A stretch of 63,836 nt of DNA, filler included, from Octopus bimaculoides (taxonomy: Eukaryota): assembly GCF_001194135.2 (NCBI RefSeq). It is 7 parts of 7 records of this genome, joined end to end, with 100 filler letters (N's around TTAATTAATTAA, not from the genome) between each part and the next. Parts side by side here need not be neighbours in the genome. Positions count along the whole stretch, not along the records: positions 1 to 11,188 come from NC_069008.1; positions 11,289 to 16,732 come from NC_068983.1; positions 16,833 to 46,430 come from NC_068989.1; 4 more parts are not named here. One strand, given 5' to 3'. The position numbers and the translations under genes were made by a program. The notes beneath the pieces were generated by a model, which did not search any database, had not been told where the DNA came from, and saw only the letters and a list, made by a program, of their open reading frames with translations. Below are positions 29 through 44,470 of this stretch, piece by piece. How positions within the stretch are numbered: the stretch's first letter is position 1; every line of letters starts with the position of its first letter.

Positions 29-73
29 CGAACGCCGACGAAGGGAAATAACCCTGAAATCCGGATACGTTCG
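29..73 (+). ncRNA. Type I hammerhead ribozyme motif (family B, copy 1)
   Basis: Stem I CGAACG(29-34)/CGTTCG(68-73); core CCGACGA(35-41, U4->C variant of CUGANGA); stem II AGGG/CCCT with loop AAATAA; GAAA-T; palindromic loop CCGG; ATA triplet (65-67). Confidence 0.7.
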
Positions 74-215
74 TGCTGCTGGTCGAGGTGAGAGGGATAA
101 CTCCCTTGGCAAACAGGACACAGTCGTGTGTCGATAAGCCAGCTGGAGGAGATGTCCTCCTGGGGCTAAAAGCAACAGTAACATCCACCCCTAGGGGTCA
201 GCCACACTTAAGTGG
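29..215 (+). mobile_element. Family B hammerhead-bearing repeat terminus (probable PLE terminal repeat or non-autonomous derivative)
   Basis: Shares AGCCAGCTGGAGGAGATGTCYTCCTGGGGCTA..AACAGTA and GCCACACTTA with 16139-16345; both end at (TA)n. Confidence 0.65.
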
Positions 216-228
216 CAATATACTACAC

Positions 229-375
229 TTTATATATATATATATATATATATATACATACACAAACATACACACACATATATACATATACACACACGCA
301 CACTATAGATTCATATACATACATACACACACATACACACACACACAAAAACACACACACACATATATATACAGT
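229..375. repeat. (TA)n/(CA)n compound microsatellite
   Basis: Directly visible. Confidence 0.95.
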
Positions 376-419
376 TGCCATGCTTGACTGCTATATCCAC
401 AAGTTTTTTTATTCTCTCT

Positions 420-570
420 GTTTATTTTCTCTTATTCCTTTCTGTCGAAGAGTGTAGGCTTGAAACGTAAAAGACTTTCTCACTTTCCCGAACATCAAAC
501 TAATACACCTGCTAGTTGTTCATACACCTGTCTTTGTCTTTTGTTTTTCTGTAAATTTCAACTATATACA
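420..570 (+). mobile_element. Family A PLE-like terminal repeat with minimal hammerhead-like motif
   Basis: CTGTCGA-A-GAGT-gtag-GCTT-GAAAC-GTA at 442-469; homologous to 640-750(-), 15911-16030(-), 22140-22290, 43900-44070, 44320-44470; ends at (TA)n. Confidence 0.6.
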
Positions 571-639
571 TATATATACATAGATATATCTATACATACA
601 TACATATATATATGGGAGAATGTACGAAAAAAAAACAAC

Positions 640-750
640 AGACGAGGACAGGTGGTGTAAACAACAAAAGGATGTATTAGTTTGATGCTTGGGAATACAG
701 AAAGTCTTTAACGTTTCAAGCTACGCTCTTCAACAGAAAGAATACGGAGA
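640..750 (-). mobile_element. Family A terminal repeat, inverted relative to 420-570
   Basis: Reverse complement reads CTGTTGAAGAGCGTAGCTTGAAACGTTAAAGACTTTCTG (736-699). Confidence 0.6.
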
Positions 751-898
751 AAAACACTGAGAAAAAAAAAAAAATATATATATATATATAGATTCAAGGT
801 TGAATATGGTACTTATGCGTAGGCACCCGAATATCGTATTCCAAAAGGATAGGTGATCAAAAAATCAAAAAATAAGCAACACGGATTTCAAAGGTGAT

Positions 899-987
899 TG
901 TAGTACGCACGTTTCATGCTACTCCAATTTATTTAAGTAATGCGAGCATTACATTAAATGCAATATGAAGAGCAATCTTCAGCTGCA
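899..987 (-). ncRNA. Type I hammerhead ribozyme motif with long stem II (family C)
   Basis: Minus strand: TGCAG-CTGAAGA(982-976)-60-nt self-complementary hairpin-GAAAC(915-911)-GTGC-GTA(906-904)-CTACA. A second copy at 19356-19393 has the perfect partner CTGCA. Confidence 0.65.
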
Positions 988-1477
988 CGAAANNNNNNNN
1001 NNNNNNNNNNNNNNNNNNNNNNNNNNNNNNNNNNNNNNNNNNNNNNNNNNNNNNNNNNNNNNNNNNNNNNNNNNNNNNNNNNNNNNNNNNNNNNNNNNNN
1101 NNNNNNNNNNNNNNNNNNNNNNNNNNNNNNNNNNNNNNNNNNNNNNNNNNNNNNNNNNNNNNNNNNNNNNNNNNNNNNNNNNNNNNNNNNNNNNNNNNNN
1201 NNNNNNNNNNNNNNNNNNNNNNNNNNNNNNNNNNNNNNNNNNNNNNNNNNNNNNNNNNNNNNNNNNNNNNNNNNNNNNNNNNNNNNNNNNNNNNNNNNNN
1301 NNNNNNNNNNNNNNNNNNNNNNNNNNNNNNNNNNNNNNNNNNNNATATATATATATATATATACATATTTTCTCTTGAATTTATGTAAGTATGTATAGAA
1401 TAATATATAAGCTGAATAAAGTTAAAACATAGTCTGGTTCTCATGTTTTTTATTATGGTATTTTAACAAAATTAATG

Positions 1478-1502
1478 CTTTCATACATAGTGTACTCATC
1501 GG
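1478..1502 (-). ncRNA. Degenerate hammerhead core in 3' UTR of PLE remnant
   Basis: Minus strand CCGATGA-GTAC-actat-GTAT-GAAAG; stems I/III not recoverable. Confidence 0.35.
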
Positions 1503-1700
1503 ATTTCAAATGTGTTTAATTCACAGTTGAGTTCTAGACAACTTTAGTGTCTCTTAGAACGCTCCAACCAGCTGAATATTTTAGAATACCGTTTTAATCA
1601 ATCCACATGCTCTTAAACATCACAGTTTGCCAGGTGTGCCGATATTCTGTAACGTGTTTATATTTATTAATCCACATCATTAACTGGTTGTTATATTATT

Positions 1701-2018
1701 GTTGCTACTTCCATTCAGGACAAGTTTGAACATTTTAATAAAACGTTTTTCTTTTATCTTTCTTCCAACCTCACTTGTGTCTTGTAGTTTGTGGAAAAGA
1801 AAAATTTTTTTAATTTTCTGACCACATACCTCTATATGTTTGCTCAATGGAATTTGGCAAACATTGACGTTCTGAATTTCTTGCTTGTGGACTCATGAAT
1901 GTTCTGATAATGCATTCCCTGTCTTGCCTACATATAATGCCTCACAATTCAGGCATTTAATGCAGTAGATCAAATTTCTGCTTTTGCAGTTCATATCTGC
2001 ATTTGCAAAAATCTGTCC
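1701..2018 (-). pseudogene. Penelope-like element GIY-YIG endonuclease remnant
   Basis: My translation of the minus strand: GQIFANADMNCKSRNLIYCIKCLNCEALYVGKTGNALSEHS*VHKQEIQ...IPLSKHIEVC...RKIKEKRFIKMFKLVLN. It has LIYCI..C..C...YVG, a C-terminal E..FI...LN, and one stop. Not in the ORF track. Confidence 0.85.
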
Positions 2019-2151
2019 ATTTTTTTGTTTTAATGGATCTATCCATATGTATGTATAAAATACAGGAAAACTAGACTATGTTTTAACTCTATTCAACTTA
2101 TATATTATTCTATATACATTTACATAAACTCGTAACAATCTAAATATATAT

Positions 2152-2759
2152 AAACAGGATTTGGAAGCTGGCATTTTCTGCATGATAGCTGTCTATCACA
2201 AAATGAAAGTAAAATCATTAGGAGGAGGAATTTTTATTAAATAAATGAAAGTAAAGCATTACGACATCCAAAGTTGTAAGAATTTCTGAAGTTTTTATAT
2301 CTGTTTTCAAATCATCATAGTAAGATTTATTAAAACTTTACCAACATACTGAAACAATAAAACTATAGATAATGTCTTTCATTTTCTTCCATAGATGAAT
2401 AGCTTGTCGTTGTCAGACAATTTTTACAATAGAATGTCTTATAAAAATTTTTGTTTATTCCATGTCAGACCATGCCTTCCCAAACAGATAGACCTCTTGA
2501 TCAGGACAGATTTGTGTAATTTTTCACAAAAAAAACTTTGTTGAGGATTTTTCTCCTTTTTAAATTATTTATGTGTCTGTTTGACTGTTTCACATGACTT
2601 TATTCATTAAAATTTATTAAAACTTTAGAAGTTCTAACAACTTTAGTCATCGTAATGCTTTGCTTTCATTTGTTTAATAAAAATTCCTCCTTCTAATGAT
2701 TTTGCTTTCATTTTGTGATAGCTATCATGCAGAAAATGCCAGCTTCCAAATCTTGTTTT
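2152..2759. mobile_element. Fold-back/MITE-like element with ~140-bp inverted arms
   Basis: 2152-2295 is the reverse complement of ~2610-2759 (GATTTGGAAGCTGGCATTTTCTGCATGATAGCT...); ~310-bp spacer; no clear TSD. Confidence 0.6.
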
Positions 2760-3199
2760 CTGATAAGGTAAAATTGATTAAACTTTAAAACCTCAGAAAC
2801 ATTTTTCTGCAGTTTTTCTGGAATAAATAAATAACAAAACCAAATTTAACGTAGAAAATTATTTCAATACATCAAATTTGAAAAATTTTGATGTAATTTT
2901 AAAATTTCACAATATGTGACAGCAACAGGGAAGACCCTACAAAAGTAGAGAGACAAGCAATTATAGAATGTGACACACACACACATTTACAAATTACACA
3001 CAGGTAATCACGAGTTTAAAATAGTGTATAGTAGGTGTATGTATGTATGTATGTATGTATGTACGTATCTATGTATGTATGTGTGTGTGTGTGTCTGTGT
3101 GTTTCTTTGAGATGGACAGCAGAAAAGCCACCTCTCCTAAAAGCAACGTATTCCTTACACCCACCTTTCCCTCCCTTCCTCAGTATTTTAAAAGTTAGT

Positions 3200-3234
<35 letters not shown>

Positions 3235-3825
3235 ATGTGTGTGTGTATGTGTGTGCATATATCTATGTATTTATGAAAGTATGTATGCAGCATCACATGT
3301 ATATGACAGCTGTATTAATGTTTATCATCCCATTGTGACTCTATATTTGTTGCCACTTACTCGCACTCTTTAATCGCACTCCCTTCACAATATCCTGTCA
3401 CTTATATTATGGCATTTGAACCTCAAAGGTATGCCCTGGCACTTGCCACTATCTATATCTCTCTTTTCCATTACTCAACCATCTCATTTATACTCTGATC
3501 CCCGTTCCTTGCGAGCATGCCCGGCATTTTGTCATCATCTCCATCTTGCGGTCTCCCACTCTCGCTCTCTCTCTCTCTCTCTCCTCCTGCACTTCCCTCA
3601 GGTTGGGAAACCATGTATTTTCTTTGCAGTAGCACACCTCTTTCTGTCTTCATTCCTGGTCGTTCTCTCTCTGGCCGGGTAGCCTTGTACTTCCTCTACA
3701 GCAAGACATTTGTATCTGTCTCATCTTTTCATCATCATCTCCTCCTCACCTTTTCATCATCATCTCCTCCAGTGCCTCCTCCCCTCTTAAAAGTTTTTTG
3801 TCCTGCAAGTACTTTGTGACCTTGT

Positions 3826-4140
3826 CAGTGCAGGTGCCACTTAAAAGCATCCAGTCTACACTGTAAAGTGATTGGTGTTAGGAAGGGTATCCAGCTGTAA
3901 AAACCTTGCCAAAACTGACCTCACCTATGCTTGTGCCACGTAAAAGCACTACACACCTCGCCTGTACTTGTGCCACATAAAAAGCACTAAGTCCACTCTG
4001 CTGAGTGGTTGATGTTAGAAAGGGCATCCAGCTGTAAAAATCCTGCCAAAACAGTCACAGAAATCTGGTGCTGGCTCTTGTGGTACCATCCCACCCATGC
4101 TAGCGTGGAACATGAACATTAAATAATGATGATGATTATG
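3826..4140 (+). mobile_element. SINE 3' portion with internal tandem duplication and (GAT)n tail
   Basis: Two copies of GTGCCAC.TAAAAGCA...GTTAG.AAGGG.ATCCAGCTGTAAAAA; ends CCCATGCTAGCGTGGAACATGAACATTAAATAATGATGATGAT. Confidence 0.7.
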
Positions 4141-4201
4141 ATGATCTCTATTTTCTTAATTTTCTTTTATATACTTACATAATGCATACATACATACATA
4201 C

Positions 4202-4221
<20 letters not shown>

Positions 4222-4237
<16 letters not shown>

Positions 4238-4605
4238 GTTGTTTTGTTGGCACTCCGTCGCTTACGACGTCGAGGGTTCCAATTGATCCGTTCAACGGAA
4301 CAGCCTCCTCGTGAAATTAACGTGCAAGTGGCTGAGCACTCCACAGACACATGTACCCTTAACGTAGTTCTCGGGGATATTCAGCGTGACACAGTGTGAC
4401 AAGACTGACCCTTTGAATTACAGGCACAACAGAAACGGGAAGTAAGAGTGAGAGAAAGTTGTGGTGAAAGAGTACAGCAGGGTTCGCCACCATCCCCTGC
4501 CGGAGCCTCGTGGAGCTTTAGGTGTTTTCGCTCAATAAACACTCACAACGCCCGGTCTGGGAATCGAAACCGCGATCCTATGACCACGAGTCCACTGCCC
4601 TAACC
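4222..4605 (-). mobile_element. tRNA-derived SINE, near full length
   Basis: Minus strand starts TGGTTAGGGCAGTGGACTCGTGGTC...GGTTTCGATTCCC (A/B-box-like); tail runs into (TA)n. Confidence 0.8.
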
Positions 4606-5021
4606 ATATATTATTTTGGTTAAGTCAGTTTCTTGCTGCTCTGAAGACTACAGGATCTTCAGTCAAATGTTGACAATGTCTGACAACTTGCCTGAAGATC
4701 CTACAGGTGAAATTCAAAGTTGCAAGAGATAGAGACTAACTCAACCAAAATAAAATATTGTTAATCTTGACTATGGTAGTGAGTACTCTTTTTTTACAAC
4801 AGTCCACACTAAAAGGATATGCATATGTGCGTGTATATGTGTGCATGCATGTAGTCATTGAAAAGGTTGCAAGTACCAACGAAAGAGCTTTGACAAACAA
4901 AAACAAAACAAATTAGTCTATCGGATATTTAACCAATTGACTAATAATAAAGAAAAGGAGTGGAATTATACACGTGTGGGTGTTAATTATATTGGCATAA
5001 TGACTCTCCCTAGATGCAACA

Positions 5022-5023
5022 AA

Positions 5024-5092
<69 letters not shown>

Positions 5093-5112
5093 GAGAGAGA
5101 GAGAGAGAGAGA
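5022..5112. repeat. (TA)n(GA)n microsatellite
   Basis: Directly visible. Confidence 0.95.
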
Positions 5113-5786
5113 GATGGAAGAAGAGTTGCATATATAGGTATACACACACACACACACATATAACACACATGTACTCTTACGCACACAAGCATATATGTAT
5201 ATACATTGCTTATTGGTTTCTAAGGCCACTTTTGCTCATCTCTTTGTTATTTATCCCAGAACTATCCCATCTCACTCTACCACACACACACAACTCACAC
5301 ACACACACACACACACACAACACACACACACACACACACACACAACACACACACACACAAACACACACATGAATTAAGTAAATATGTCCGCAACATAATA
5401 GATTTTTTCCCACATATCCAAATATCTAACATCTAACACTTACTACTACTACTACTACTACTACCAGTTCTGTGTAGCCTTCCTCTACTATTGCTGTTCA
5501 CATTGCTTGGTTCTTGATGCATTCTTCTGACACTATCAGCTGCTGCAGCAACATTTGTGCATAAGGAGTTGATTTTTTTTATGTATACAGCTGTGTTGAT
5601 ACAATGTTGATCATGGCTGTATCAGAGTGTGATATAGCAATGTGATCAATGGAATATTACATAATTAACACCATTTCAATAACACATGTATGCTCATGAG
5701 ACAACAACGGAACCTTTGATGTAATTGTTCTCTCTCTTCTGCTAGAAACAACAAACAGCTTAATCAGACTGCCATCTTAAAAAAAG

Positions 5787-6114
5787 CATTATAATGTGTA
5801 TCTTCATCCACTTATTTGATAGTGTTGGCACTGTAATATTCTTGTCACCGCTATTATGTTGTAGTGTCTTATTATCTTTGACTTGTCTATTTTGCTATCA
5901 CTGACAGCTCAGCAAGACAATGACTTTGAAACATCTACCATGACAGTAAATTGAACTTGTATATATCACATAAGTGACACTGACTCCAACTGAGAAACTT
6001 GAACAATGACTCTACTACTACTAACTTCCTACAATGACTGACTGTCTGACTTTATAGTAGCTCTGTCATACCACTTTGTCACATGAGAAGGAGAGTACAA
6101 TTTTCATTACAACA
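5787..6114 (-). repeat. 3' LTR of Gypsy element
   Basis: Aligns with 7872-8209 over ~330 bp (roughly 80% by eye); begins TGT on the minus strand after the PPT. Confidence 0.85.
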
Positions 6115-6147
6115 TCTCCCCTTTTCGTCCCCCCCCCCCCCCTCAAA

Positions 6148-6760: not shown

Positions 6761-6915
6761 GTTGTACAGACTTTTCTCTCTGATGACAAACTATTTATTT
6801 TTTCTCATTTCGTCCAAATTTTGTTATCTTAGTTCTTCAGTGCGATTCAATGTGTTCCATGTTCCCACAGTCAAAACACATTGCTTTTTTGAACGGACAC
6901 TCCTCTCTCAGATAC

Positions 6916-7687: not shown

Positions 7688-7871
7688 GTTTTCTATAATT
7701 TTATGGATTTTTCATAAAATATGTACAACAATGTTTGTTACTCCTCTGTCGAATATTTATTTTCTCCATGTGAAAAGCTTTTCAATGTTGTCCATGTGAA
7801 TTGACAACATTTTCGCATGATCAAAAAATTTTTTTAACATCTACATGAATTGTTTATTTCCTCATCACCAC

Positions 7872-8209: not shown

Positions 8210-8329
8210 AAAAAATAATGGGTACTTTGGATGATGCAGTTGGAATTGCACAAAGGGATGATCATGGATGGATTGCTTTAGGGAAGAGGTCAGTCTTGGG
8301 CGTTAAATGAACAGCAGCATGATGACATA

Positions 8330-11779: not shown

Positions 11780-12091
11780 CTAAGTTGGTATATCAGTGTT
11801 GTCGGCAGTCAGAGGCTTGAAATTTGCCAGAAGGGCATACCGCTGGTGACAGCAGTAAGACCAATTGTATTTCTTATTGATGGATACTGCGGTTTGTTGG
11901 AGGATATGCAGTTTTTCGCGGGGGCAGAGCTGGCACTTGGGGGCGCAGGGTGAATATAGTGACAATAGTCCACTTGATGCTAGGTGTTTCATCTCGGAGG
12001 TCACGGAGTCTCCAGAGAAAACGAGACAGGGAGGTAGAGTTCTCTCTGCCCCTGGATCTGAACGAGTGCATATGCTGAGAGTATACACCAA
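11780..12091 (-). pseudogene. Penelope-like (Neptune-type) GIY-YIG C-terminal remnant
   Basis: ENSTSLSRFLWRLRD...PSIKWTI and CQLCPREKLHIL...CCHQRYALLANFKP; same family as 18298-18630. Confidence 0.8.
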
Positions 12092-13096: not shown

Positions 13097-13137
<41 letters not shown>

Positions 13138-13451
13138 CTCTACCTCTCGTTGCTCACTTTTATTCTACTTCCTCCCCTTCTTTTCCCTCTGCTGCTCTTT
13201 CTCTTTACACAGAGCTGGTCACGTGTGTCCGGCTGCTTTTCGTTCTTGGACTCCCCAAGCTCGCACATACTTTTTTGCCCCTCCTGTTCGTGCTTCACAG
13301 CGTTCAATACATACACACTTCACGTCTGGCTGTACAGTCTTTTTGCTTGTTTGTTTATTCACCGTTTCGTTTTCCTGTCTTGTTTTCCGTCCGCCACTAC
13401 CCTCCACGAAAATAATTTAATTTGTGTTCGTGGGAAGAACCATTTCAACGA

Positions 13452-13512
13452 TGCATACTGCCTTAATTCTTCGAAACGCCGGTGTTTTAATGGTGGCAGC
13501 TGATGAAGGAGA
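13452..13512 (+). ncRNA. Order-permuted hammerhead-like motif (diverged family C relative)
   Basis: ATA-CTGCC(13455-62) ... TCTTC-GAAACGC(13468-79) ... GGCAG-CTGATGA-A-GGAGA(13495-13512); stems I and II pair, stem III has one mismatch. Confidence 0.4.
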
Positions 13513-15169
13513 TATTTCTATGTGGTTTGCTTGTTTGTTGTACCTTGTTTATCATTTTGTTCATGTTCTTTTGCCACGTCATGTANNNNNNNNNNNNNNN
13601 NNNNNNNNNNNNNNNNNNNNNNNNNNNNNNNNNNNNNNNNNNNNNNNNNNNNNNNNNNNNNNNNNNNNNNNNNNNNNNNNNNNNNNNNNNNNNNNNNNNN
13701 NNNNNNNNNNNNNNNNNNNNNNNNNNNNNNNNNNNNNNNNNNNNNNNNNNNNNNNNNNNNNNNNNNNNNNNNNNNNNNNNNNNNNNNNNNNNNNNNNNNN
13801 NNNNNNNNNNNNNNNNNNNNNNNNNNNNNNNNNNNNNNNNNNNNNNNNNNNNNNNNNNNNNNNNNNNNNNNNNNNNNNNNNNNNNNNNNNNNNNNNNNNN
13901 NNNNNNNNNNNNNNNNNNNNNNNNNNNNNNNNNNNNNNNNNNNNNNNNNNNNNNNNNNNNNNNNNNNNNNNNNNNNNNNNNNNNNNNGTGTGTGTGTGTG
14001 TGTGTGTGTGTGTGACAGACGAAACTTTCGTTACATGGTAGAATACATTAAAAGGAGAAAACTTTTAATCTTTCAACTCTTTTAAAGGTCAATCACCTTT
14101 CTTAACGTTTGTGAATGGGCGTTCATGTACTTATAATGCCTGCTTGATGATGACATTCGACAAAATATGGAAACCCACTAGGATGTGTATTTTCACAATT
14201 GTAGTTTATTCAGCTATATAATATATTTTTGCTTTTTCTTCTTTTTAACTTAGTTCTAGAAATCTCTGGCGAAATGGTTTCGTATCAGTTTCACAGCATT
14301 TTTTAAAAAATGCTCCCTTCACCCGCGAACTTTAGAAAATATTACTTATTAGCAACAGTCATCCTGTTTAGAGTGACGTTCATAGTGACGTAACGATGAA
14401 ATGCAGAGCTAAAACAGAAAAAAAAAATATGCTAAAGTCAATTATTGTCGTATCTACACGTCTGTTCTTTCTATCCCAATACACCCACATATACACGCGT
14501 TAACATCTAAGAGAATAGTATGAAACCTAAAACAAGGTTCCGGGTCTGTGGTATTATTCACTTTTTGTTAGTTCGTTTGTAGTTTTTTTTTTTAACTAAA
14601 GCATTTCTATTTTAACAGAAACTGCCGCTTTTATTCATAAAAGTACATTCTGCAAAGTATCATGCTCAACAAGAGTTTTTGATTAACATTAGAGAGAAAA
14701 AAATAAATCATATTTGAATTAAACATAAACGACTCACTCTTTCGTTCATTTTTCATTCAATGATGGCAGCATAAAAATGCAAATGATGATAATAATAACA
14801 CTAGCTTAACACGAAATTATACTCCAGAAGATCAAATAACGGTTGTATTCTCACTAGAAAACATTACGTCAGTTTTATATTTTCAATGACTTCAGACTTT
14901 TAAAACTGAATGAATTAGTTTTCCGTTAAATAAAAGGTGCTGGGAGGAGGGAGAACCAGTTGTGTTGCTACTCAAGCTCACTTCTGTACCAACGGATGTG
15001 TGTGTGTGTGCATGTAGACAAAGAGAGAGGGAGAAAGAGAGAGAAAGCTTGTAAATATTAGGTTAAACCACTCTTTCGATAGAAAAGTCGTTGGCGTCAT
15101 AGGAATTATAAACTTCGAGAGAACGTGAAATAATTCTTTTTTGGGACGGTGAACCTTGAAGCAGAAAAG

Positions 15170-15910: not shown

Positions 15911-16030
15911 GACGCTCGGGAAAGGAAAGAAAGAGAATTTGACATCTCGAGCGGAGCTCTTCGTCGGAAACATAGGAGAGTCCAAAGAAGGGAAAGTCGG
16001 AGGAAGAAAAAATCGCCAACGATATCCACG
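15911..16030 (-). mobile_element. Family A terminal repeat
   Basis: Minus strand CCGACGA-A-GAGC-tcc-GCTC-GAGAT-GTC-AAATTCTCTTTC...TTCCCGAGCGTC. Confidence 0.55.
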
Positions 16031-16138
16031 AGGTTACATTGTGGAATAACCGGAAGGGAAAGGGTGGAGAAAAAGTTCTTTCTAAGACAGGATAGTGCTG
16101 CGAGTGGAATGAGCTTACATCGCTAGCTAGTGATTAAC

Positions 16139-16181
16139 ACACGCTGAGGACGGGTAACCACCCAGAAACTCGAGTCTGTGT
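16139..16181 (+). ncRNA. Type I hammerhead ribozyme motif (family B, copy 2)
   Basis: ACACG-CTGAGGA-C-GGGT-aacc-ACCC-A-GAAAC-TCGA-GTC-TGTGT: intact core, palindromic loop TCGA, GUC site at 16174-16176; stem II closes with a C.A mismatch. Confidence 0.8.
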
Positions 16182-17631: not shown

Positions 17632-18630
17632 ATATGTTATAGGACGACGGCCTGGCAATCTCAAGCCATATGAATGATCATGTCATAGACAAGTTTAGGA
17701 AGGACCTGATAAAAATATTTTAAAAATTTAACTTGTCCATAGCGGTTACCAGAAACTAGATCATGGCCGACGACGTAGACGTGACCCTACACCTGAAAAT
17801 GGACAAGAACTACCCTTACAGGAAGCCCAAGGAGGAAACTGGGTACATCCACAGAAGCTCGAATCATCTACCCGTTGTTATTAGAGACCCATTTTCAGGT
17901 GTTAACAGAAACTTATATAAGCTTTCAGCCGATAGAGAATGCTTCAACAGAGACGCCAACCCCTACAACAATGGTGCATTGGTGAAGAATAGATTTTCTT
18001 AGAAGTTAGCATGTATGGAGTATTCCCAGCCTCAACCCCACAACCAGAAAGAGAAAGCTAATCAGGTTCAATCCTCCATTTTACCTAATCTTTTCAAGCC
18101 ACATAAAGTAAAGGTGAGCTACTTCTGCTTAGATAAAAAATTGTTTCTTGCACTGCACGCTACAACAGAGGCAAATATGCACCCACACAACCTCCAACCC
18201 CAACCTGTAATTGCGGAAACCCTAGCAGCTACCTTCCAGAAGGATCTATAGAGCAATCCTCACCCCATCCGATGTCATCGAAAGGCACTACACAAACATG
18301 ACGGTCAATGGTTTCAATAGAAGGCACATGCAGCATATGCTTAGATGCAAGGACAGAGAGAATTCCACCTCTTTGTCTCGTTTCCTCTGGGGACTTTGCG
18401 ACCTCCGGAATGAAACCCCAAACATTGAACAGACCATCATCGACAGGGCCCTATGTTACTCATTCGGTGCCTGCAACTGCCAGCTCTGTTTCCGCGAAAG
18501 ACAGCATATTCTCCACAAATCTGTAGTATCTATCATCAGGAAAATACGAACTTATTGCTTCCATCAGATGTATGCTCTCCTGGTGAAGTTCAAACCACTG
18601 GCCGCTGACAACCAAGATATACCACCTTAA
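17632..18630 (+). pseudogene. Penelope-like (Neptune-type) RT C-terminus plus GIY-YIG remnant
   Basis: Frameshifted Y(R)DDGL at ~17637-17655; DVTLHL...YPYRKP...YIHRSSNH; ENSTSLSRFLW...CQLCFRERQHIL. Confidence 0.85.
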
Positions 18631-19128: not shown

Positions 19129-19393
19129 AACAAATAGTAAACGAGTATATGCATATATACGTACAGGTATGTGCATACCGACATCCACCTGTATGTATAG
19201 GTGCATATCTGGGTACAGGACATTGCAAACAAACGTAGACGAGAAAACACACAAGCCACATAGAGAACATTCTACTTCATCAGCTACCCACGTTTTAACA
19301 CCGGCGTTTCGACGAATATAAAATCAAAATAAGCAACACGGATTTCAAAGATGATTGCAGTACGCACGTTTCATGCTACTCCATTTATTTAAG
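19128..19393 (-). mobile_element. Family C hammerhead-bearing terminus
   Basis: 19321-19393 matches 866-937; 19128-19180 matches 15474-15525; contains GAAAC-GTGC-GTA-CTGCA and a second GAAAC/CTGATGA pair; abuts (TA)n; truncated by a gap. Confidence 0.7.
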
Positions 19394-22139: not shown

Positions 22140-22290
22140 CTATTTTCTCTCCCTGTTTATTTCTGTCGAAGAGCGTAGGCTCGAAACGTAAATGACTTTC
22201 TCACTTCCCAAGCGTTAAACGAATACATCTGTTTGTTGTTTACACATCCGTCTTCGTCTTTTGTTCTTTTTTGTAAATTCTCACTATATA
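22140..22290 (+). mobile_element. Family A terminal repeat
   Basis: CTGTCGA-A-GAGC-gtag-GCTC-GAAAC-GTA at 22163-22190; ends at (TA)n. Confidence 0.6.
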
Positions 22291-24085: not shown

Positions 24086-25436
24086 TAGCGCAAAATGGGC
24101 AGCTGTCAAAGTTTACCNNNNNNNNNNNNNNNNNNNNNNNNNNNNNNNNNNNNNNNNNNNNNNNNNNNNNNNNNNNNNNNNNNNNNNNNNNNNNNNNNNN
24201 NNNNNNNNNNNNNNNNNNNNNNNNNNNNNNNNNNNNNNNNNNNNNNNNNNNNNNNNNNNNNNNNNNNNNNNNNNNNNNNNNNNNNNNNNNNNNNNNNNNN
24301 NNNNNNNNNNNNNNNNNNNNNNNNNNNNNNNNNNNNNNNNNNNNNNNNNNNNNNNNNNNNNNNNNNNNNNNNNNNNNNNNNNNNNNNNNNNNNNNNNNNN
24401 NNNNNNNNNNNNNNNNNNNNNNNNNNNNNNNNNNNNNNNNNNNNNNNNNNNNNNNNNNNNNNNNNNNNNNNNNNNNNNNNNNNNNNNNNNNNNNNNNNNN
24501 NNNNNNNNNNNNNNNNNNNNNNNNNNNNNNNNNNNNNNNNNNNNNNNNNNNNNNNNNNNNNNNNNNNNNNNNNNNNNNNNNNNNNNNNNNNNNNNNNNNN
24601 NNNNNNNNNNNNNNNNNNNNNNNNNNNNNNNNNNNNNNNNNNNNNNNNNNNNNNNNNNNNNNNNNNNNNNNNNNNNNNNNNNNNNNNNNNNNNNNNNNNN
24701 NNNNNNNNNNNNNNNNNNNNNNNNNNNNNNNNNNNNNNNNNNNNNNNNNNNNNNNNNNNNNNNNNNNNNNNNNNCATATATATGTATATATATATGTACG
24801 AAATAATATTATGGAGACAACACAGGCGAAGTCTAAAAGAACATAATTGAAATACGCATCCAAAACTTATATAAATACATATATTCTCTATAAAATGGAA
24901 ATAAAATTCTAAAATGCACAAATATTTATAAATAGACAATATCACTGCAATGCATAAAATACGATTGAATTTAAATAAAAACGATTGAATTTAAGAAAAT
25001 ATCATTTGTAATTACATTTAAAATCGTACATTGTATGATGAAATAAAAAATTTAACTTGAAAGGATTAAGTATTAAAAACATTAAAACCAACGAAAGAAA
25101 AAATATATAAACATCACATCTACGGGCCGTTTGAGAGACGTGCCAAGGAATATGACATATTTCATATTACTAATCAAGGCACTCCCCTCATTAGGATGTT
25201 ATACTAAGTTCATAAATACATCTACATAACAGGGTCGGTCCACCATCAGCAGCAATGTAAGATATTATCCTAAAAAAAACCTATATTTATATAATAGTAC
25301 CTAATTTCCATATTAATTAATAGAGCCAGAAAATCATGCTAAAAGGTATGTATTAAGGTAAACCAGAAATAATATTTTATTACATGTTAATTTTTATTTC
25401 TTCGTTATTATGAAATTAGATGTCCGAGATCAAATC

Positions 25437-26830
25437 CTACTTATTTTTATTTTTACTTTTAAATATTTTTAAGACCGTGGAGTGGATTCTATGTGTACAT
25501 GCAGGTATTGTATCAGTAAATTTATTCAATATGGATTGATTACAGAGTTTTAATATAATGTATACTTCCCTGATACATAAATTGCACCTTGTGGATCCAT
25601 TTCTATATGGGTGGGGGTCGTACGCAAGAATAGACCACGATAATCTATATGTAATATCCTTTTCCTTAAGGTCATTTATATATATTGCCAATGTCGTTGA
25701 TATCTTATATTTGGGATTATTAAAGGAGCTCAGATGGCTTCTATATCTCTGTTTGAAATTCGTCGTACTTCCAATATATATCTTGTTTTGACCATTTGGT
25801 GTTTCAATTCTACATTTATATATGACGTTATGCTGGCAACAGTTTTCGTTAATCAGACATATCAAAGGGTCTCTACAATTACATTTTTTATGGGGTTTAC
25901 AAATAGCATGATTATATATATCCGTTACTGCCTTCGTTTCAATGCCAGAATTCATGATACTATTTGTACTTTTATTCGTGTTAATTTTAGATTTATTCAT
26001 TTTATTATTACCTTTATGTTATCTGCCAATCCTATATTTTTTTACATATTTTGTTTCATAAGGTGTGTTGTTTTTATTATTATCAACATTCTTATTACTA
26101 ACTTTCCCTTTATCAGGTTTAATGCTTTTACTAAATATATTGTTATCAATTCTATCATTTACAGATTTTATTTTCTTATTCATTAAAGCGATAATAGACC
26201 AGAGGTTAGGAGTTACCGAATAAGCTAATTTTATAGAGGATTTATTGCATATTGAGTAATATTTATGTTGTTTGGGAAGTTTTCTTTTAATAATTTAAAG
26301 AACAATTTTGGTAGACCTTTCACTCTTAATGAAAAGGGTGGGGCAAACCAAACAACCTGATGAATCCTAGATCTAGTATTAAAAGCTGCCTTGTATTGTG
26401 TTGTTTGACTATGATTGCAATATGTAAAGCCATTTCTATTATTATTTTTATTTTCATTCAAATCTGAAACTTTAATCATCTTAACATTGTAATTATGTTC
26501 GTATTTATTATTATTACCGTTATTAAGGCGACTATTGTGTTGTGCTGTTTGACTATGATTGCAACATGGGAAGCCATTTCCGTTTTTATTTTTATTTGTA
26601 TTTATGCTTGAAACTTTACCTAACTTAACATTATAATTATTATTACCACTATTAAGCTTATTATTAACCTTATCATTATTGATGCTACCATAAATACTAT
26701 TTTTACTATTTTTCTTTTCTACTTTACCCTTTATATGCATTTTATTAGCACATATATCGGCATTTATCGAATTAGTTTGAGTTTTAGGGGGATCAATTGG
26801 GGAGTTCATGCTATCTGAGATCAGGTTCCT
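25437..26830 (-). pseudogene. Penelope-like (Neptune-type) ORF C-terminal part with Asn-rich expansions and GIY-YIG
   Basis: VVWFAPPFS...FFKLLKENFP; after a shift KYYSICNKSSIKLAYS; CNCR...C...NVIYKC...KIYIGSTTNFKQRYRSH...CNLCIRE...ILNK...CTH; two frameshifts; RT absent. Confidence 0.9.
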
Positions 26831-27196
26831 ATTATCACACACACACACACGCGCATAAACGCGCGCGCACACACACACGCACACAAGAACGCACATATAC
26901 CTCTACATAACAACCCCATGCAACACTCACATACACACACACTCATACACACATACACACACACACACATACACACACACGCGCATACATATATGCACGC
27001 GTACACACATCAATGCACATATACCTCCCACACACAACACACACTAATACTTACACGTACACAGACGAACATACACGCACACACAGAGAGGAATGCACAT
27101 ATACTCCACACACACAACCCCACACACAACCCCATGCACACGCACATACACATACGCACGTATACACACGCACACACATAACATATACATACCAAC

Positions 27197-28971: not shown

Positions 28972-29555
28972 TGTCAGAAAATGGAATGAACACCATCATT
29001 TGAAAATCACTACAATTGTTTCGACACATTTTTACACCTGTAGTAGTACATTGGTGAGATGTATAATCATTATCATGTATCGAAGGTGATTGCTTGAATA
29101 AGTCCTTCATTGCATCCTACCGACATTTTATTCAGTGTGAGAAGTAATTCGTCATTTTTCGGCAGTTTACAGGCAAGAACTAAATCACAGATATAGTGAT
29201 AGATAGAATACAATTATAAACAAATTACAAAATACAGTAATAAAATGGACCAGAAAAAAGTGTCAGCTCAGTGCAAAACAGAATGAAGACTAAATGAAGA
29301 ATAAAAATTAGCATTTAGAGACAATAAATCTATGGGTTTAGTTTTGTCTGTAAACTGCTGGAAATGACACATCACTTTGGGTATGTATTATCATACTGAG
29401 TAAAATGATGGTAGGATCCAACAAAGGACTTATCTAAACAATCATCTGAGGCGGATGGATGATAATGATTACACATTTAAACAATGTATTACGAGTGTAA
29501 AGATTCGTCGAAACAATTGTAGTGATTTTAGATAAAGAATGACGTTCATTCCATT
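28972..29555. mobile_element. Head-to-head inverted pair (family E), each arm with a decayed hammerhead
   Basis: 28972-29180 is a diverged reverse complement of 29341-29555; both arms carry GTC-GAAAC-AATT-GTA-GTGAT and upstream ATCAY-CT. Confidence 0.7.
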
Positions 29556-32065: not shown

Positions 32066-32066
32066 G

Positions 32067-32107
<41 letters not shown>

Positions 32108-34129
32108 ATATGTTTGTGTGTCTGTGTTTGNNNNNNNNNNNNNNNNNNNNNNNNNNNNNNNNNNNNNNNNNNNNNNNNNNNNNNNNNNNNNNNNNNNNNN
32201 NNNNNNNNNNNNNNNNNNNNNNNNNNNNNNNNNNNNNNNNNNNNNNNNNNNNNNNNNNNNNNNNNNNNNNNNNNNNNNNNNNNNNNNNNNNNNNNNNNNN
32301 NNNNNNNNNNNNNNNNNNNNNNNNNNNNNNNNNNNNNNNNNNNNNNNNNNNNNNNNNNNNNNNNNNNNNNNNNNNNNNNNNNNNNNNNNNNNNNNNNNNN
32401 NNNNNNNNNNNNNNNNNNNNNNNNNNNNNNNNNNNNNNNNNNNNNNNNNNNNNNNNNNNNNNNNNNNNNNNNNNNNNNNNNNNNNNNNNNNNNNNNNNNN
32501 NNNNNNNNNNNNNNNNNNNNNNNNNNNNNNNNNNNNNNNNNNNNNNNNNNNNNNNNNNNNNNNNNNNNNNNNNNNNNNNNNNNNNNNNNNNNNNNNNNNN
32601 NNNNNNNNNNNNNNNNNNNNNNNNNNNNNNNNNNNNNNNNNNNNNNNNNNNNNNNNNNNNNNNNNNNNNNNNNNNNNNNNNNNNNNNNNNNNNNNNNNNN
32701 NNNNNNNNNNNNNNNNNNNNNNNNNNNNNNNNNNNNNNNNNNNNNNNNNNNNNNNNNNNNNNNNNNNNNNNNNNNNNNNNNNNNNNNNTATATAAACTTT
32801 AACAGAAATTGGATTTCTAGAGATTTCTTATTTTCTTCTCTCGCACCCACTCCCTCCACTTGTCTGACACACCATACTCATTCACTCCACCTAACACTCA
32901 CATATACGCTAACATTCGCCCAGACGTTTACCTACATATATAGAAACATAAAGAACTTATTCTCTATAAAGACACTCGCACACACAAGAAAACGCGTAAC
33001 TACATAAGTCTTCGCATCTATTATCTGCCGTGACTAACCTCCCTTGTGCTGAGAAAAACAGTGAGAAAAACCGTAGCACTCATTACTATGCTTGCCAACT
33101 CATCGTATCTTTATCACCCACTGATAAGCCATCTGTTGGCTGAAAAGCGCTAATTCGTTCTATCCACTTCTATCAGTCAATTTATTTACTCACCATGCCG
33201 CTTACATTTCGTTTTGTTTTTTTTTCTCTATTTTGTCTTTTTTTTCTTGACGAAGGCAAGTATCCGAAAAGTGAGCTGTCCTAGATTTCTTCCTCATGAC
33301 GTATTACTAGTAAAGCTGTGCATCTGTTTGTTTTTGTTTTTATTTTATTGGCATTTATTTTGGAAATCTTAGATATCTTTACACGCTGAAGAAGATCTCA
33401 GTTCCAGCTACATTGGATTGTACTGGTATTAGAATTAAGAAACTGCAGACGTAAAAACTAATGTGATTTAATAACGAAGCATTGTTTGTTGCTGGTGATT
33501 CTGAATTAACATTCATTCGCTTCTATATAGATAAAACTTCATTTTCCTGTAAAAAATGTAGTGTGAGTCTGAACTCAAATTAAGAGGCAAGAAAATACGT
33601 ACTGTAGGCCATGAAAATTCTCTGCTACACCGTTAGACATCTTAATCAGCCTTTGAACAGTAAGAGACATTTTAAATAGTAGCGACTGAATTGCAAGTGC
33701 TTAAGAGCCCACGAGAAGTATCTGGGCCGAGAAAAAATGGCGTATCTTTAATTTTACAAATTTATAGCTATGTAACTTATATTAAAGTACTGTGTTGATC
33801 TTAAGGATAAACCGTTTATTTTCATAAACAGACTTCTCAACTTTTACAGACGATTCTTAATTTCGATGAGAATGAAATTTCAACCATGGTCAAGGATTAA
33901 CTCACTCTCTACTCTCGGCAAATATAGTTTTCGTTAGTCGACACAGACTTAAATTTGTTTAAAGCAGGACAAAGTTGAATGAATCGACACAATAATTCAA
34001 TAATCGACCTACTAATTAAAAAATTTCAACATTGTTTGTCAGATTATTTTGTACTGAGAAAAACAGACTCTTAGCTTGAAAAATCTTCCTTCCCTGTGTA
34101 AGTGTATTTTCTTTTTCTCTTTTAATTTT

Positions 34130-39250: not shown

Positions 39251-39323
39251 CGGTCAGACCTAGGTTTCAAAATTTTTTTAGCAAATAAAATAATTTTCTA
39301 GGCGAATTTCTCATCAGTGACTG
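39251..39323 (-). ncRNA. Type I hammerhead ribozyme (family D, minus strand)
   Basis: CAGTCA-CTGATGA(39317-39311)-GAAATT...AATTTT-GAAAC-CTAG-GTC(39259-39257)-TGACCG. Confidence 0.8.
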
Positions 39324-39502: not shown

Positions 39503-39575
39503 CGGTCACTGATGAGAAATTCACCTAGCAAATTATTTTATTTGCTAAAAAAATTTTGAAACCTAGGTCTGACTG
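39503..39575 (+). ncRNA. Type I hammerhead ribozyme (family D, plus strand)
   Basis: Stem I CGGTCA/TGACTG; CTGATGA 39509-15; stem II GAAATT/AATTTT extended by TAGCAAAT/ATTTGCTA; GAAAC 39558-62; palindromic loop CTAG; GUC 39567-69. Confidence 0.85.
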
Positions 39576-40135: not shown

Positions 40136-40190
<55 letters not shown>

Positions 40191-40199
40191 GTCTCTGTG

Positions 40200-40420: not shown

Positions 40421-40689
40421 AAGGTTCTTTGATTCCCGTATTAAAGGCAATAGAGTTTTTTTCTTTTTAAAACGCATGATGTATGTTCAGACAATTATTC
40501 TCAGCATATCGAGCGGCAACAACATAGAGATTCCCTTACTGACTTGTTATCTACAACTGTAAGTAAAGACTGGCTGAGCCAGCGAGGGCTCGACTATAAG
40601 GTCACTTAACCTGCTGGAAATGAAGCGGGTCTTAAATGCCAGTTTTAAAACTGTGACAATCCTCTAGAGGCAGTGTGGTCACAATGAAC

Positions 40690-40905
40690 TGCTTTCAAAT
40701 TTTGGCACAAGGCCAGCAATTTCAGGGGAAGAATAAGTCGGTTACATCGACCTCAGTACTCAGCTGGTACTTATTTTATCGATCCCTAAAGGATGAAAGG
40801 CAAAGTCGACCTTGGTGGAATTTGAACTCAGAACGTAAAGACGGACGAAATGCTCCTAAGCATTTTCCCGGCCTGCTAAAGATTCTGCCGGCTCGCCGCC
40901 TTCAT
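40690..40905 (-). mobile_element. tRNA-derived Meta-domain-like SINE
   Basis: Plus strand AAAGGATGAAAGGCAAAGTCGACCTTGGTGGAATTTGAACTCAGAACG, as in 17240-17300; other copies at ~58085-58180, 59345-59395, 63660-63836. Confidence 0.75.
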
Positions 40906-40934
40906 GATTTTAATAATTTAAGTATTAATATTGT

Positions 40935-41210
40935 CTGGCACAGGCGTGACTGTGTGGTAAGAAGCTTGCTTCCCAACCACATGGTTTCTGTGTTCNNNNN
41001 NNNNNNNNNNNNNNNNNNNNNNNNNNNNNNNNNNNNNNNNNNNNNNNNNNNNNNNNNNNNNNNNNNNNNNNNNNNNNNNNNNNNNNNNNNNNNNNNNNNN
41101 NNNNNNNNNNNNNNNNNNNNNNNNNNNNNNNNNNNNNNNNNNNNNNNNNNNNNNNNNNNNNNNNNNNNNNNNNNNNNNNNNNNNNNNNNNNNNNNNNNNN
41201 NNNNNNNNNN

Positions 41211-41245
<35 letters not shown>

Positions 41246-41450
41246 TGCATGTCTGTGCTTGTCAACCCACCATCGCTTGACAACCGATGTTGGTGTGTTT
41301 TTACTTAGCGGTTCGGCAAAAGAGACCGGTAGAATAAGTACTAGGCTTACAAAGAATAAGTTCTGGGGTCTATTCGTTCAACTAAAAGTGATGCTCAGCA
41401 TGACCGCAGTCAAATAACTGAAACAAGTAAAAGAATAAAAGAGTAAAAGA
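40935..41450 (+). mobile_element. CORE-like SINE spanning a gap
   Basis: Head before the gap, tail (AAGTAAAAGAATAAAAGAG) after it. Confidence 0.75.
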
Positions 41451-43899
41451 ATATGGTATTTGATACATCTGTATTTGTCTATGTCACATGCCACTGGTGA
41501 TTAGGTAAAATAATTGTCATGCTGACGACGCCTTTGGAGAGAGGCATACGCGTCTACGATTGTACTTTTATCTTATAAGCCTGTCCTTTTCTTTAATGGT
41601 ATGCCAATTTTGGATTCTTAAGGTTGCCTCCCCTTCTCATATAGAGCTGTTCTCAATTGTCATTTGGTAATTGTAACAGATCCTCTACAGGCGGCGGTGA
41701 TTTTGATTTATGTTGTATGTTGTATGATACTTAATATACCTGCGTCTGCCTATGTTGTTCATATAAATGCCACTGGCCACTCAGAATTATTTCTCTTTAC
41801 TCATTTTTGTCATATATATATATATGTGTGTGTATACATATATACTTACTATGAGCTTCCTTATAGTTTCCAGTAACTAAATTCACTTACAAGGCATTGG
41901 TCGTCCCATGGCTATAGTATATGACACTTGCCCTAGGTGCTGTGCTGTGGAACTGAACCCGAAATCATGTGATTGCGAAGCGTATTTCTTAACTACGCAG
42001 CCATGCCTATGATATTTATTGATTTCGTAATTAAATCAGAGAGTAATTTTGGTTGAGGAATATAGACATTTCACAGAGATTGGTATATTACTGCTGCTTT
42101 ATGGATGAAAGATAATTAAAATGTCCATTAATTAGTGATGTGTGATTTGAATTCAGAACGTAAAGACGTGGAAGCGACTGTTGAAATAGATTTNNNNNNN
42201 NNNNNNNNNNNNNNNNNNNNNNNNNNNNNNNNNNNNNNNNNNNNNNNNNNNNNNNNNNNNNNNNNNNNNNNNNNNNNNNNNNNNNNNNNNNNNNNNNNNN
42301 NNNNNNNNNNNNNNNNNNNNNNNNNNNNNNNNNNNNNNNNNNNNNNNNNNNNNNNNNNNNNNNNNNNNNNNNNNNNNNNNNNNNNNNNNNNNNNNNNNNN
42401 NNNNNNNNNNNNTGTGATTTGAATTCAGAACGTAAAGACGTGGAAGCGACTGTTGAAATAGATTTACTTTGGTGCTCTACATTTCTGATACTTCGCTGTA
42501 GAATCGCTGTGCCAACCCTTACATGTTATATCTGACATGTAATTGTCAGTACGAAAGATAAAATATGAACCGGAGAGCATTCAGATAACAGTAGAAAGAA
42601 TCAACTGTGTAAAATGTGAACAGTTCTAAATGCCATCCACCGCTCTACACTGGTTTACTGTCAAATAGATTAAGAAAGGAGAAACATCAGTAATAAAGAA
42701 TATTTGATTATTTTTTTAATGATTGATTAATGCCAAAGATATGTCAGTGTCCATGGCATTACTAAGGTTTCCTCTTTCGTTCTCTCTATTTCTCTCTACA
42801 TATATATTGGCGAGATCATGTTTTCTTAGAATATGGTGAAAATCTGGTCTGGACAAAAAAATTCCGGTATTTTTTTAAGGGGTTATTCAGAGTAGGAAAA
42901 AGTAACTCTTATGAACTTTCTCAGAATCTTCGTGACTTGTTAGAGGAAAAGAGGAAGTTATTCTCAGATCAAAGATCTGGTCGGCATGTATCAGAGCGGG
43001 ATGCAGTAAAGGTATTCAAAGTGTCAGGTGATGTTAAACCTGCTACGGATTTAGTTGCTGGAGTTCAATCGCTTTAAAGTTTCAGGGAAGCTCCTGGGTC
43101 GCTGTGCCTGTGACACAAGTTTGATTTTACAGTGTCAATTATTTTTACTGGACTTCTTGTTAATTGTTATATTCGGCGCATTATCTTGTTAACTTCTTGA
43201 GCACTCCGTTAAAGATAAAGCCTTCATATACGATCCTACGTTCCACTAAGAGTAAATATGCAGGGAAAGGTTTCAAAGATAATTCTTGGGGATAAATACT
43301 GAAAACAAAGGTCTGAAAGGAGTGACACAGTAAGGGTAGGTTGAGGAAGAGAGACAAGTACACCTAGTGGATTTATTTAGAAATGGCATGGGATGAGCGG
43401 GACGAACTGGTATTCGAAATAAGCAGTCATCTTTCTCTTGTGATTGAAACCACACATAGACAGAAGGCTATATTAAATCTAAGAAGTACAAGAGTTTCTC
43501 TACTGGATATACATGGATATACAATCATTTGTACATCGTCTATCAGAGATTGTACTGTCTCACAGAATCAATGTGTTAGCGTTTACTTCAACAACTTCAG
43601 TGCTTTGAAGTCGAGAGATATCTTCCCCTCCCTATAGATTAAACACCAGTCATTTCCAAGTTTAGCATACAACGATTTTAACTCAGCTTTTGAAATTAAT
43701 TAATCTACCATCAATTATAACAACAAGAGATCTTACTCAACTTGGTACCTACTTTACATTTATTTGAACTTAGCCACTGAGCGTTAAAATGTAACACCAG
43801 TTATTTTTCAGCTATGTATACGTATAAATTTCCAGTTATTTTTCAGCCGTGTAACGGCACACATATTTTTCTTGGACTATCTTTTTCCTTCTCTCCGGA

Positions 43900-44070
43900 G
43901 TTTTCCCTTCTTTCCTCTTTCTGACAAAGAACCATGCTCGATACGTCACCTTACTTTTTTTTCGTCTTAAACTTTTCTGAGCGTCAATCTAATACATTCC
44001 CTGTGAATGTCCTTTTGACTTTTGTTGTTTATCCTGTTTTGGTTTTTATTTTTGATTTGCCTATATACAA
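43900..44070 (+). mobile_element. Diverged family A terminal repeat
   Basis: CTGACAA-A-GAAC-cat-GCTC-GATAC-GTC at 43921-43947, then TTTTCTGAGCGTCAATCTAATACA; ends at (TA)n. Confidence 0.5.
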
Positions 44071-44319
44071 TATGTACATACATACGTATATATATATATA
44101 TATATATATATATNNNNNNNNNNNNNNNNNNNNNNNNNNNNNNNNNNNNNNNNNNNNNNNNNNNNNNNNNNNNNNNNNNNNNNNNNNNNNNNNNNNNNNN
44201 NNNNNNNNNNNNNNNNNNNNNNNNNNNNNNNNNNNNNNNNNNNNNGAGAGAGGGAGAGAGATGTGTGTGTGGTGAGTGTGTAATTACACAGATGCTGTTG
44301 GTGATTTTTTTCATTCTTC

Positions 44320-44470
44320 GGACTTTTCCGTTTTCCTTTCCGATGAAGTGCTATGCTCGAAACGTTAAAATGTCTCTATTCTTACCGAGCGTCAAACTAA
44401 TATATTCCATGTGCACGTCCTCTTGTTGTTTGTTATTACTATTTTTATTACTCGTTTCTTTGATTTAACT
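44320..44470 (+). mobile_element. Diverged family A terminal repeat
   Basis: CCGATGA-A-GTGC-tat-GCTC-GAAAC-GTT at 44340-44366, then CCGAGCGTCAAACTAATATA. Confidence 0.55.

Follow-up and report, generated by a model that had tools for sequence, protein, structure and literature searches.

A stretch of 63,836 nucleotides from the genome of Octopus bimaculoides (NCBI RefSeq assembly GCF_001194135.2), referred to here as the window, carries hammerhead ribozyme motifs of several families (A to E, and a permuted family that we call X). These motifs are quite probably the ribozyme-bearing 3' ends of several families of Penelope-like elements (PLEs), likely present as short 5'-truncated copies and now mostly decayed; the family at positions 13452 and 19283, X, has permuted core blocks, is predicted to be self-cleaving and is likely Naiad-derived. 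That PLEs carry hammerheads is known biology, found here in a new genome. The evidence leans slightly towards a broader proposal: that the genome holds more than 5,000 active hammerheads that are non-circularly permuted and opened between core positions A9 and G10.1, that these and their CSG- and SGC-type relatives are the missing ribozymes of the Naiad elements from ctenophores to octopus, that the cut sets the 5' end of insertions, and that a lineage of family A with U at core position 6 (U6) has outgrown the canonical form fivefold. If X cleaves, these would be the first such non-circular permutations in cellular genomes, RNA permutations would move from unknown environmental RNAs to a tractable animal retroelement, the three-block rule for enumerating hammerhead topologies would be broken, and the hammerhead-free spread of Naiads, an argument for ribozymes as dispensable passengers, would be overturned.

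Large PLE hammerhead loads have been described in other animals, with 2,000-9,000 motifs per genome and pairs on opposite strands (PMC4209133), and Craig et al. 2021 (PMC8557442) described inverted truncated copies and tails and listed one octopus PLE hammerhead in their File S2. The window consists of seven parts with 54,846 non-N bases (host genome, 2.34 Gb); the 18 hammerhead sites listed in a preliminary description of it lie on three of these parts, and part coordinates were counted by hand, such that errors of one or two bases are possible.

Hammerhead load of the window and the genome

Sixteen of the 18 listed sites are real hammerhead sequence; the site at 33381 is a doubtful relic, and that at 35080 is unsupported. 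A wide descriptor allowing no mismatch found eight matches in the window (four canonical and four of the U3-A8 type, two of the latter being overlapping artefacts in the family D palindrome), against a mean of 0.2 (maximum 2) in 30 local dinucleotide shuffles, which places the window above the dinucleotide-shuffled level. A short type I descriptor, which misses families C, D and E owing to its 40-nt limit on domain II, found two strict motifs versus 0.05-0.15 in shuffles. Family profiles, most of them built including the window's own copies, matched 13 of the 18 sites, with no match in shuffled DNA. The flanks group into families, for each of which 433-3,063 first-look candidates were obtained (A, 3,063; B, 1,380; C, 1,806; D, 708; E, 433; X, 2,938 and 1,839). 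An Rfam scan of the window gave 99 matches at E <=1, all sub-threshold and driven by microsatellites in microRNA or small nucleolar RNA models, and no ribozyme.

Genome-wide, an exact pattern for minimal type I hammerheads had 13,799 matches (540 for the reversed-pattern control), and those for U6 family A and for the permuted family had 7,846 (control 0) and 5,295 (control 15), respectively; the canonical family A pattern had 1,455 (control 0), mostly contained in the minimal type I count. The total is at least 26,000 exact-core copies with the long-stem families left out, which bears out the large and diverse ribozyme load that had been proposed. Given these results, it is highly improbable that AT-rich microsatellite DNA produced the motifs by chance: with one mismatch allowed, the descriptor does find as many motifs in shuffled DNA (15-21) as in the genome sample (20), and chance fits site 35080 and perhaps 33381, but the shuffle and reversed-pattern controls lie 25- to more than 300-fold lower and the flanks form families, refuting this explanation for 16 of the 18 sites.

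The window is not typical of the genome. Against a sample of 60 stretches of 10 kb, spaced evenly (515,553 non-N bases), its enrichment is about 4.5- to 6-fold, both in family-profile matches (27 versus 6.0 per 100 kb) and in canonical strict matches (4 in 54.8 kb versus 6 in 515.6 kb), partly because the families were picked from the window. Extrapolated to about 2 Gb, a density of 6 per 100 kb would correspond to some 100,000 intact or decayed members genome-wide. The window lacks the commonest minimal type I family (L417-L446; 7-bp stem II, GUU cut site), which frequently occurs as divergent pairs 100-400 nt apart.

Association with Penelope-like elements

Four of the five PLE open reading frame (ORF) remnants reported earlier were located, the fifth was not. 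They comprise a C-terminal GIY-YIG endonuclease remnant with one stop (1692..2030, minus strand; Pfam GIY-YIG E 0.0075, under the cut-off), a decayed endonuclease remnant (11781..12077, minus) that is 70% identical to 18331-18629, a decayed remnant of reverse transcriptase (RT) thumb and endonuclease (17643..18630, plus), and a linker with GIY-YIG endonuclease (25437..26836, minus; Pfam E 3.5e-5). Two window hammerheads (1502 and 25194) lie in sense about 190-240 nt behind GIY-YIG remnants, and the arrangement recurs in the genome: a strict sense hammerhead follows 185-343 nt downstream at 7 of 30 loci related to 25437-26836, and a hammerhead lies within 450 nt at 15 of 30 loci related to 1692-2030 (the window's own included), giving 22 of 60 pooled endonuclease loci with an overall spacing of 180-450 nt. 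The copies share a fixed 3' end at (TA)n and have variable 5' ends, inverted or partial-tandem copies, and tail extension; those in the window are short 5'-truncated repeats at (TA)n, frequently in inverted pairs (convergent in family A, divergent in D and E). Sense hammerheads behind GIY-YIG ORFs, 5' truncation, (TA)n ends and inverted pairs together uphold the earlier suggestion of PLE terminal repeats.

The motifs also resemble published PLE hammerheads in detail. Like the minimal hammerheads of PMC4209133, they have type I order and a short or palindromic stem III with an extra base after A9, and they form many consensus families per genome, with thousands of single truncated copies and opposite-strand pairs 100-700 bp apart; family A has the hallmarks of that minimal motif (the extra base after A9, G10.1-C11.1 and a palindromic stem III). 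They differ in that several families here have a domain II of 40-90 nt, the U6 core is not among the variants given in the main text of that paper, and the counts are higher (more than 13,000 for one pattern). The Hydra-clade hammerheads of Craig et al. share the (TA)n targets, the position of the motif near the 3' end, a stem II opened by U-U or a bulge, and a near-palindromic stem III of 3-4 bp, features that fit family C (which has the Hydra-type U-U opening), 16139 and 1502; no window motif is identical to the motif listed for Hydra-1_oBim.

Against a PLE origin stands the lack of a collinear ORF for A-E and X in their own 3-kb loci, where the copies are heavily truncated and the search used a narrow set of 38 PLE baits (none of Naiad type). 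PLE protein matches were found there in 0 of 50 loci of A, 2 of 20 of B, 1 of 20 of C, 0 of 25 of D, 1 of 20 of E, 3 of 153 of X and 0 of 30 Naiad-type loci, and no PLE ORF was found at L326, where two A copies lie 2.7 kb apart. The PLE origin of A-E thus rests on anatomy and analogy. In the source elements, we hypothesize, the hammerhead would cut tandem transcripts to unit length, with the palindromic stem III pairing between two hammerhead copies, and the element's RT-endonuclease would start at the 3' end of the RNA and copy it into nicked (TA)n, mostly halting early.

A permuted hammerhead

The window's main copy of X (13122..13585, plus strand; ends approximate) is a 5'-truncated non-coding repeat that runs into a gap, and it contains a non-circularly permuted hammerhead with one stem III mismatch (site 13452; 13434..13506, plus). 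Its upstream stem II strand lies at 13434-13439, the predicted cut after 13457, GAAA at 13473-13476, and CUGAUGA at 13500-13506. In order, X consists of this 6-nt strand, the stem III extension, the cleavage triplet with the 3' strand of stem I, the 3' strand of stem II with GAAA and the 5' strand of stem III, and the 5' strand of stem I with CUGAUGA; all core bases are present, with blocks in S-G-C order. Types II and III were ruled out for 13452, as GAAA sits within the loop of stem I. A second copy (site 19283; 19262..19317, minus), overlooked earlier, begins some 8 nt to the 3' side of the predicted cut; its insertion point is the tail of a family C copy. Because of this young relative at 19317, the preliminary description had grouped 13452 with family C, but its permuted blocks make it a separate family.

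The topology of X is well supported by covariation, and cleavage is predicted. Among 24 chosen representatives (22 X and 2 Naiad-type), whose rows are related and not independent events, 90.4% of cells are paired and both bases change in 13 of 24 pairs, a pairing reached by 0 of 500 shuffles and compared with 42-49% for slid registers. Stems I and III are 99% paired, with 2 of 5 and 2 of 4 pairs changing on both sides, and stem I is 93.5% paired in 105 parsed copies (31-57% when slid). The strand before GAAA pairs over 5-6 bp with the upstream strand, at a spacing that among the 105 copies is 22 nt for 62 and 20 nt for 18, and 4 of the 6 pairs change on both sides. By contrast, the bases after CUGAUGA pair over 1-5 bp with the stem II strand, and 0 of 3 such pairs covary; this downstream pairing is reduced to 1-2 bp in several lineages, and an unbroken block C is not supported for X. 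On the simplest reading, the core is open between A9 and G10.1, an arrangement outside the three-block scheme; alternatively, the downstream G10.1 may pair alone or the strands may swap. The stem III extension has tandem GA on both strands, kink-turn-like, in 46 of 102 copies.

A sequence-free S-G-C descriptor gave five matches in the genome sample and 0-1 in five shuffles, and two of the five belong to a family, Y, that is unrelated to X in sequence and has every helix changed, with the same layout (stem II has 6 bp upstream and 1 bp downstream). The copies of Y, two in the 516-kb sample, lie at L068:8900-8990 (+) and L083:7450-7540 (-) and have a kink-turn-like loop. Family E (L397-L416) is reminiscent of the opened core of X in that its domain II, from A9 to G12, can alternatively be drawn as two separate hairpins.

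Several points weigh against this account of X. The covariation counts come from related copies and so do not amount to a probability, the upstream strand in the 105-copy parse was picked by best pairing, 22 of 24 rows likewise conserve the downstream G able to pair with C11.1, and the window's 13452 copy fails the strict S-G-C descriptor. X might instead work as an ordinary type-SGC hammerhead, with stem II formed by the bases after CUGAUGA and the upstream strand acting, through an exchange of partners, as an inhibitory or timing helix. This would suit the pairing of the G after the bulged base with C11.1 in those 22 rows (87.5% paired over 3 bp), the likeness of the upstream and downstream strands in most X subfamilies, and two Naiads with S-G-C order and a downstream stem II (Naiad-4_Dst and Naiad_Smim, by eye). 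We nevertheless consider it unlikely: the downstream stem II has no pair that changes on both sides, is only 1-2 bp long in the youngest X subfamily, the Naiad-type motif and family Y, and does not exist (by eye) in Naiad_EuTe, Plae, Bfor and 3_Chem, where the upstream strand pairs over 4-6 bp.

Returning to the opened core, X would fold as a monomer, for which its long stem III is a candidate reason, with the backbone open between A9 and G10.1; it would cut after GUH, the 3' product would be the preferred template, and a PLE would mobilise it in trans. Eckert et al. 2023 (PMC10085705) validated S-G-C ribozymes in vitro; they reported none from the genome of a known organism, one weak GCS case excepted. 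X shares with their type-SGC and type-CSG hammerheads the core bases, the S-G-C order, the crossing helices and a short link from stem I to the stem II strand. It differs from them in residing in an animal genome, theirs being from metatranscriptomes and metagenomes; in a covarying stem II strand that lies upstream, where their block C was assumed unbroken; and in its long stem III extension, often with tandem GA. No match for the topology of X was found in the literature searched.

Permuted hammerheads at Naiad 3' ends

Craig et al. described Naiads as lacking canonical hammerheads, with half cores flagged in some ('HHR_half_core', File S1). For 37 of the 54 Naiad consensus sequences in File S5 of PMC8557442, we inspected the terminal 450-600 nt by eye; element names were inferred from the following header, with a direct check for EuTe and Ppla. 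A complete permuted hammerhead is present in 15 of the 37: seven have C-S-G order (Parc, three Nbra, Hcon, Hpol and Ptep), six have the upstream-strand layout (Obim, Ovul, EuTe, Plae, Bfor and 3_Chem), and two have S-G-C order with a long insert (4_Dst and Smim). Esco and Lpol have a partial one, and the other 20 consensus ends have none within the nucleotides read. In Naiad_EuTe, some 60 nt separate the RT stop from the start of the motif, and in the CSG-type ends an extra helix joins the far sides of stems I and II. The bivalve and Clytia Naiad 3' ends have another conserved, helix-rich motif without CUGANGA, possibly of another ribozyme class.

In the octopus genome, the Naiad-type motif includes 39 nt that are identical to the 3' end of the published Naiad_Obim consensus and have 209 matches with at most one mismatch. 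X has the layout and the same stem I as Naiad_Obim and Naiad_Ovul, together with (TA)n, truncation, partial tandems and a tail; unlike the Naiads, it is non-coding, has diverged in stems II and III, and is partly very young. No RT motif was found within 1.5 kb of 60 Naiad-type loci, nor any Naiad ORF linked to X in the assembly, and the Naiad link of the genomic motif therefore rests on the published consensus. A further point against the proposal is the helper of young X, which is unexplained because one X subfamily has identical copies and cephalopod Naiads are described as long inactive (PMC8557442). Permuted hammerheads tied to PLEs, Naiads or octopus were not found in the literature searched, mostly outside subscription papers.

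Copy ends, units and transcripts of family X

The 5' ends of X were examined in the first 100 pattern matches on contig 1, of which 98 were X, with nine gap-limited copies censored. Of the 98 ends, 24 fall within 16 nt at or 3' of the cut and 26 in the 110 nt that precede it, a rate ratio of 4.0 (p 3e-6) that is consistent with a cut that sets the insertion end. Weighing against this, the ends are spread from +1 to -12 with the mode at -6, that is, 6 nt downstream (seven copies), and three lie exactly at the cut; the anchor used to define 5' ends hides any that lie further 3'; and RT stalling at a stable fold could possibly give similar ends. X is transcribed: each of three RNA runs from a single study yielded 2,169-3,157 reads in about 6% of its data. 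These unstranded, fragmented libraries showed no pile-up of read ends and no spliced reads at a joint (GTAAGT) in the X unit, a poorly covered part; both results stand among the points against the proposal, although libraries of this type are uninformative on cleavage.

The preliminary description had offered retrozyme-like parasites as an alternative to PLE ends, and for the short ORF-less copies to be true retrozymes replicating as circular RNAs is, in our view, rather unlikely. Only the permuted family lends itself to this: in six of seven resolvable cases its units are non-coding partial tandems of 669-787 nt, and read-through into the next unit (245-374 reads per run, versus 232-371 into (TA)n) accounts for about half of the listed 3' loose read ends, whereas only 7-8 of 40 resolvable genomic copies run on in this way. 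The read-through hints at tandem or circular templates, but a few strongly expressed X loci could explain the ratio, and short reads do not separate a circle from a tandem locus, the junction reads being equal to tandem-locus reads. Families A-E do not conform, being single stumps or inverted pairs in the window with no arrays, and having same-strand neighbours at only a few loci. Compared with metazoan non-LTR (long terminal repeat) retrozymes (bioRxiv 10.64898/2026.07.22.740005), X is similar as a non-coding, hammerhead-bearing and presumably PLE-dependent repeat unit, but these are type I and form tandem arrays, whereas X is permuted and has longer units in partial tandems of 1.x units.

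A variant core in family A

Core position 6, A in the canonical form, is U in the 7,846 exact U6 copies and in three window copies (442+, 710- and 22163+), the rest of the core being intact in the latter. The U6 form comprises several subfamilies with stems and GAAA unchanged, is five times as numerous as the canonical form (7,846 versus 1,455), and has flanks in common with its canonical sisters. Position 7 varies freely while U6 is fixed across subfamilies, and the change therefore lasted through several amplifications. A natural A6C hammerhead is known and is slow in Mg2+ (PMC3088659, PMC7151607), at a cost of up to 10,000-fold (PMC7151607). No natural A6U hammerhead was found in the literature searched, mostly outside subscription papers, and the variants of Lunse et al. 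2017 may include U6 or some of the families described here. An alternative reading of family A in a register starting at U3 was dropped, as it leaves no stem II.

That the U6 hammerhead retains useful cleavage is plausible, if on balance somewhat doubtful; it would then still cut as a dimer, and otherwise the fold alone would suffice for copying. More generally, the folds could be kept as recognition signals for the PLE protein and not as catalysts, with cleavage weak or dispensable in non-autonomous copies. The fivefold spread of the U6 copies with intact stems and GAAA speaks for this, as do the slowness of A6C and the poor in vitro cleavage of minimal PLE hammerheads (PMC4209133). We judge it decidedly unlikely as a general account, since all other families retain every catalytic base across divergent subfamilies and an excess of X copies begins at the predicted cut. 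With its U6 and canonical subfamilies, A offers a natural experiment on whether cleavage, or the fold alone, is what PLEs require.

State of the individual motifs

Family members genome-wide, and six copies in the window, have the type I layout (CYGANGA, GAAA and UH in C-G-S order, with three stems). The view that most copies are working ribozymes is not supported: about six listed sites keep a canonical core, and the majority are decayed. The six, each with all three stems, are 29+, 899-, 1478-, 39251-, 39503+ and 44340+. The first is an intact family B hammerhead (29..73, plus strand) with a palindromic stem III. Family B (window 15-250, +) is very young: many of its copies are 100% identical, and L358 holds a tandem duplicate; no autonomous partner was found for it. 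Family C is represented by 899..987 (minus; core at 982), with a 60-nt domain II opened by U-U and one stem-I mismatch, and site 1478 by the type I hammerhead at 1467..1508 (minus; core at 1502) about 190 nt behind the GIY-YIG remnant. The two intact family D hammerheads (39251..39321, minus, and 39503..39575, plus) include a divergent arm of a 630-nt palindrome, the former, and the family A copy at 44336..44369 (plus) has a canonical core with one stem-II mismatch, a 3-bp stem I and weak stems.

The U6 copies of family A are minimal type I hammerheads at 438..473 (plus) and 705..741 (minus), which converge, and a copy with a weakened stem I at 22159..22194 (plus). Core or stem is decayed at 15940-, 16139+, 43921+, 29441+ and 29006-: the family A copy at 15922..15976 (minus) has a canonical CCGACGA and a damaged GAAA; a B-related type I hammerhead at 16137..16181 (plus), with a flank 75% identical to B, has lost the closing pair of stem II; a family A relative at 43918..43953 (plus) has lost G8 and A14; and family E, an old family, is present as a divergent pair, with a deletion at G8-A9 in the type I hammerhead at 29440..29527 (plus) and the core lost at 29005..29088 (minus). 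Of a further family C copy the 3' half is seen (19345..19393, minus), its 5' half falling in a gap. The doubtful relic at 33378..33455 (plus) has core and GAAA, with U16.1 absent, and site 35080+ has G15.1, no core-adjacent stem I, and a fold z of -0.34.

Besides the second X copy at 19283-, two motifs had been overlooked: a type I hammerhead with a long stem II at 25116..25199 (minus; 25194), which has lost G5 and G12 and lies 240 nt behind a GIY-YIG stop, and a D-like remnant at 57797-57878 (+; 27.9 bits), beyond the range first described. Candidate type I hammerheads with a U3-A8 core swap lie in the window at 4854-4896 (+) and elsewhere at L096:8358 (-), the latter with a 6-bp stem I and a palindromic stem III.

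Other elements in the window

Remnants of other mobile elements lie at 23142-23933 (-), 22521-22850 (-), 6148-7711 (-), 59475-60179 (+) and 8414-8821 (+); the types among them are a mariner-type transposase, a Pif1 helicase domain, a DUF7083 ORF with LTR-like neighbours, and RT fragments. Repeats resembling short interspersed nuclear elements, without hammerhead cores, are abundant (17144-17432, a fold-back copy; 40693-40857; 63753-63832; 31903-32107; and 50436-50614).

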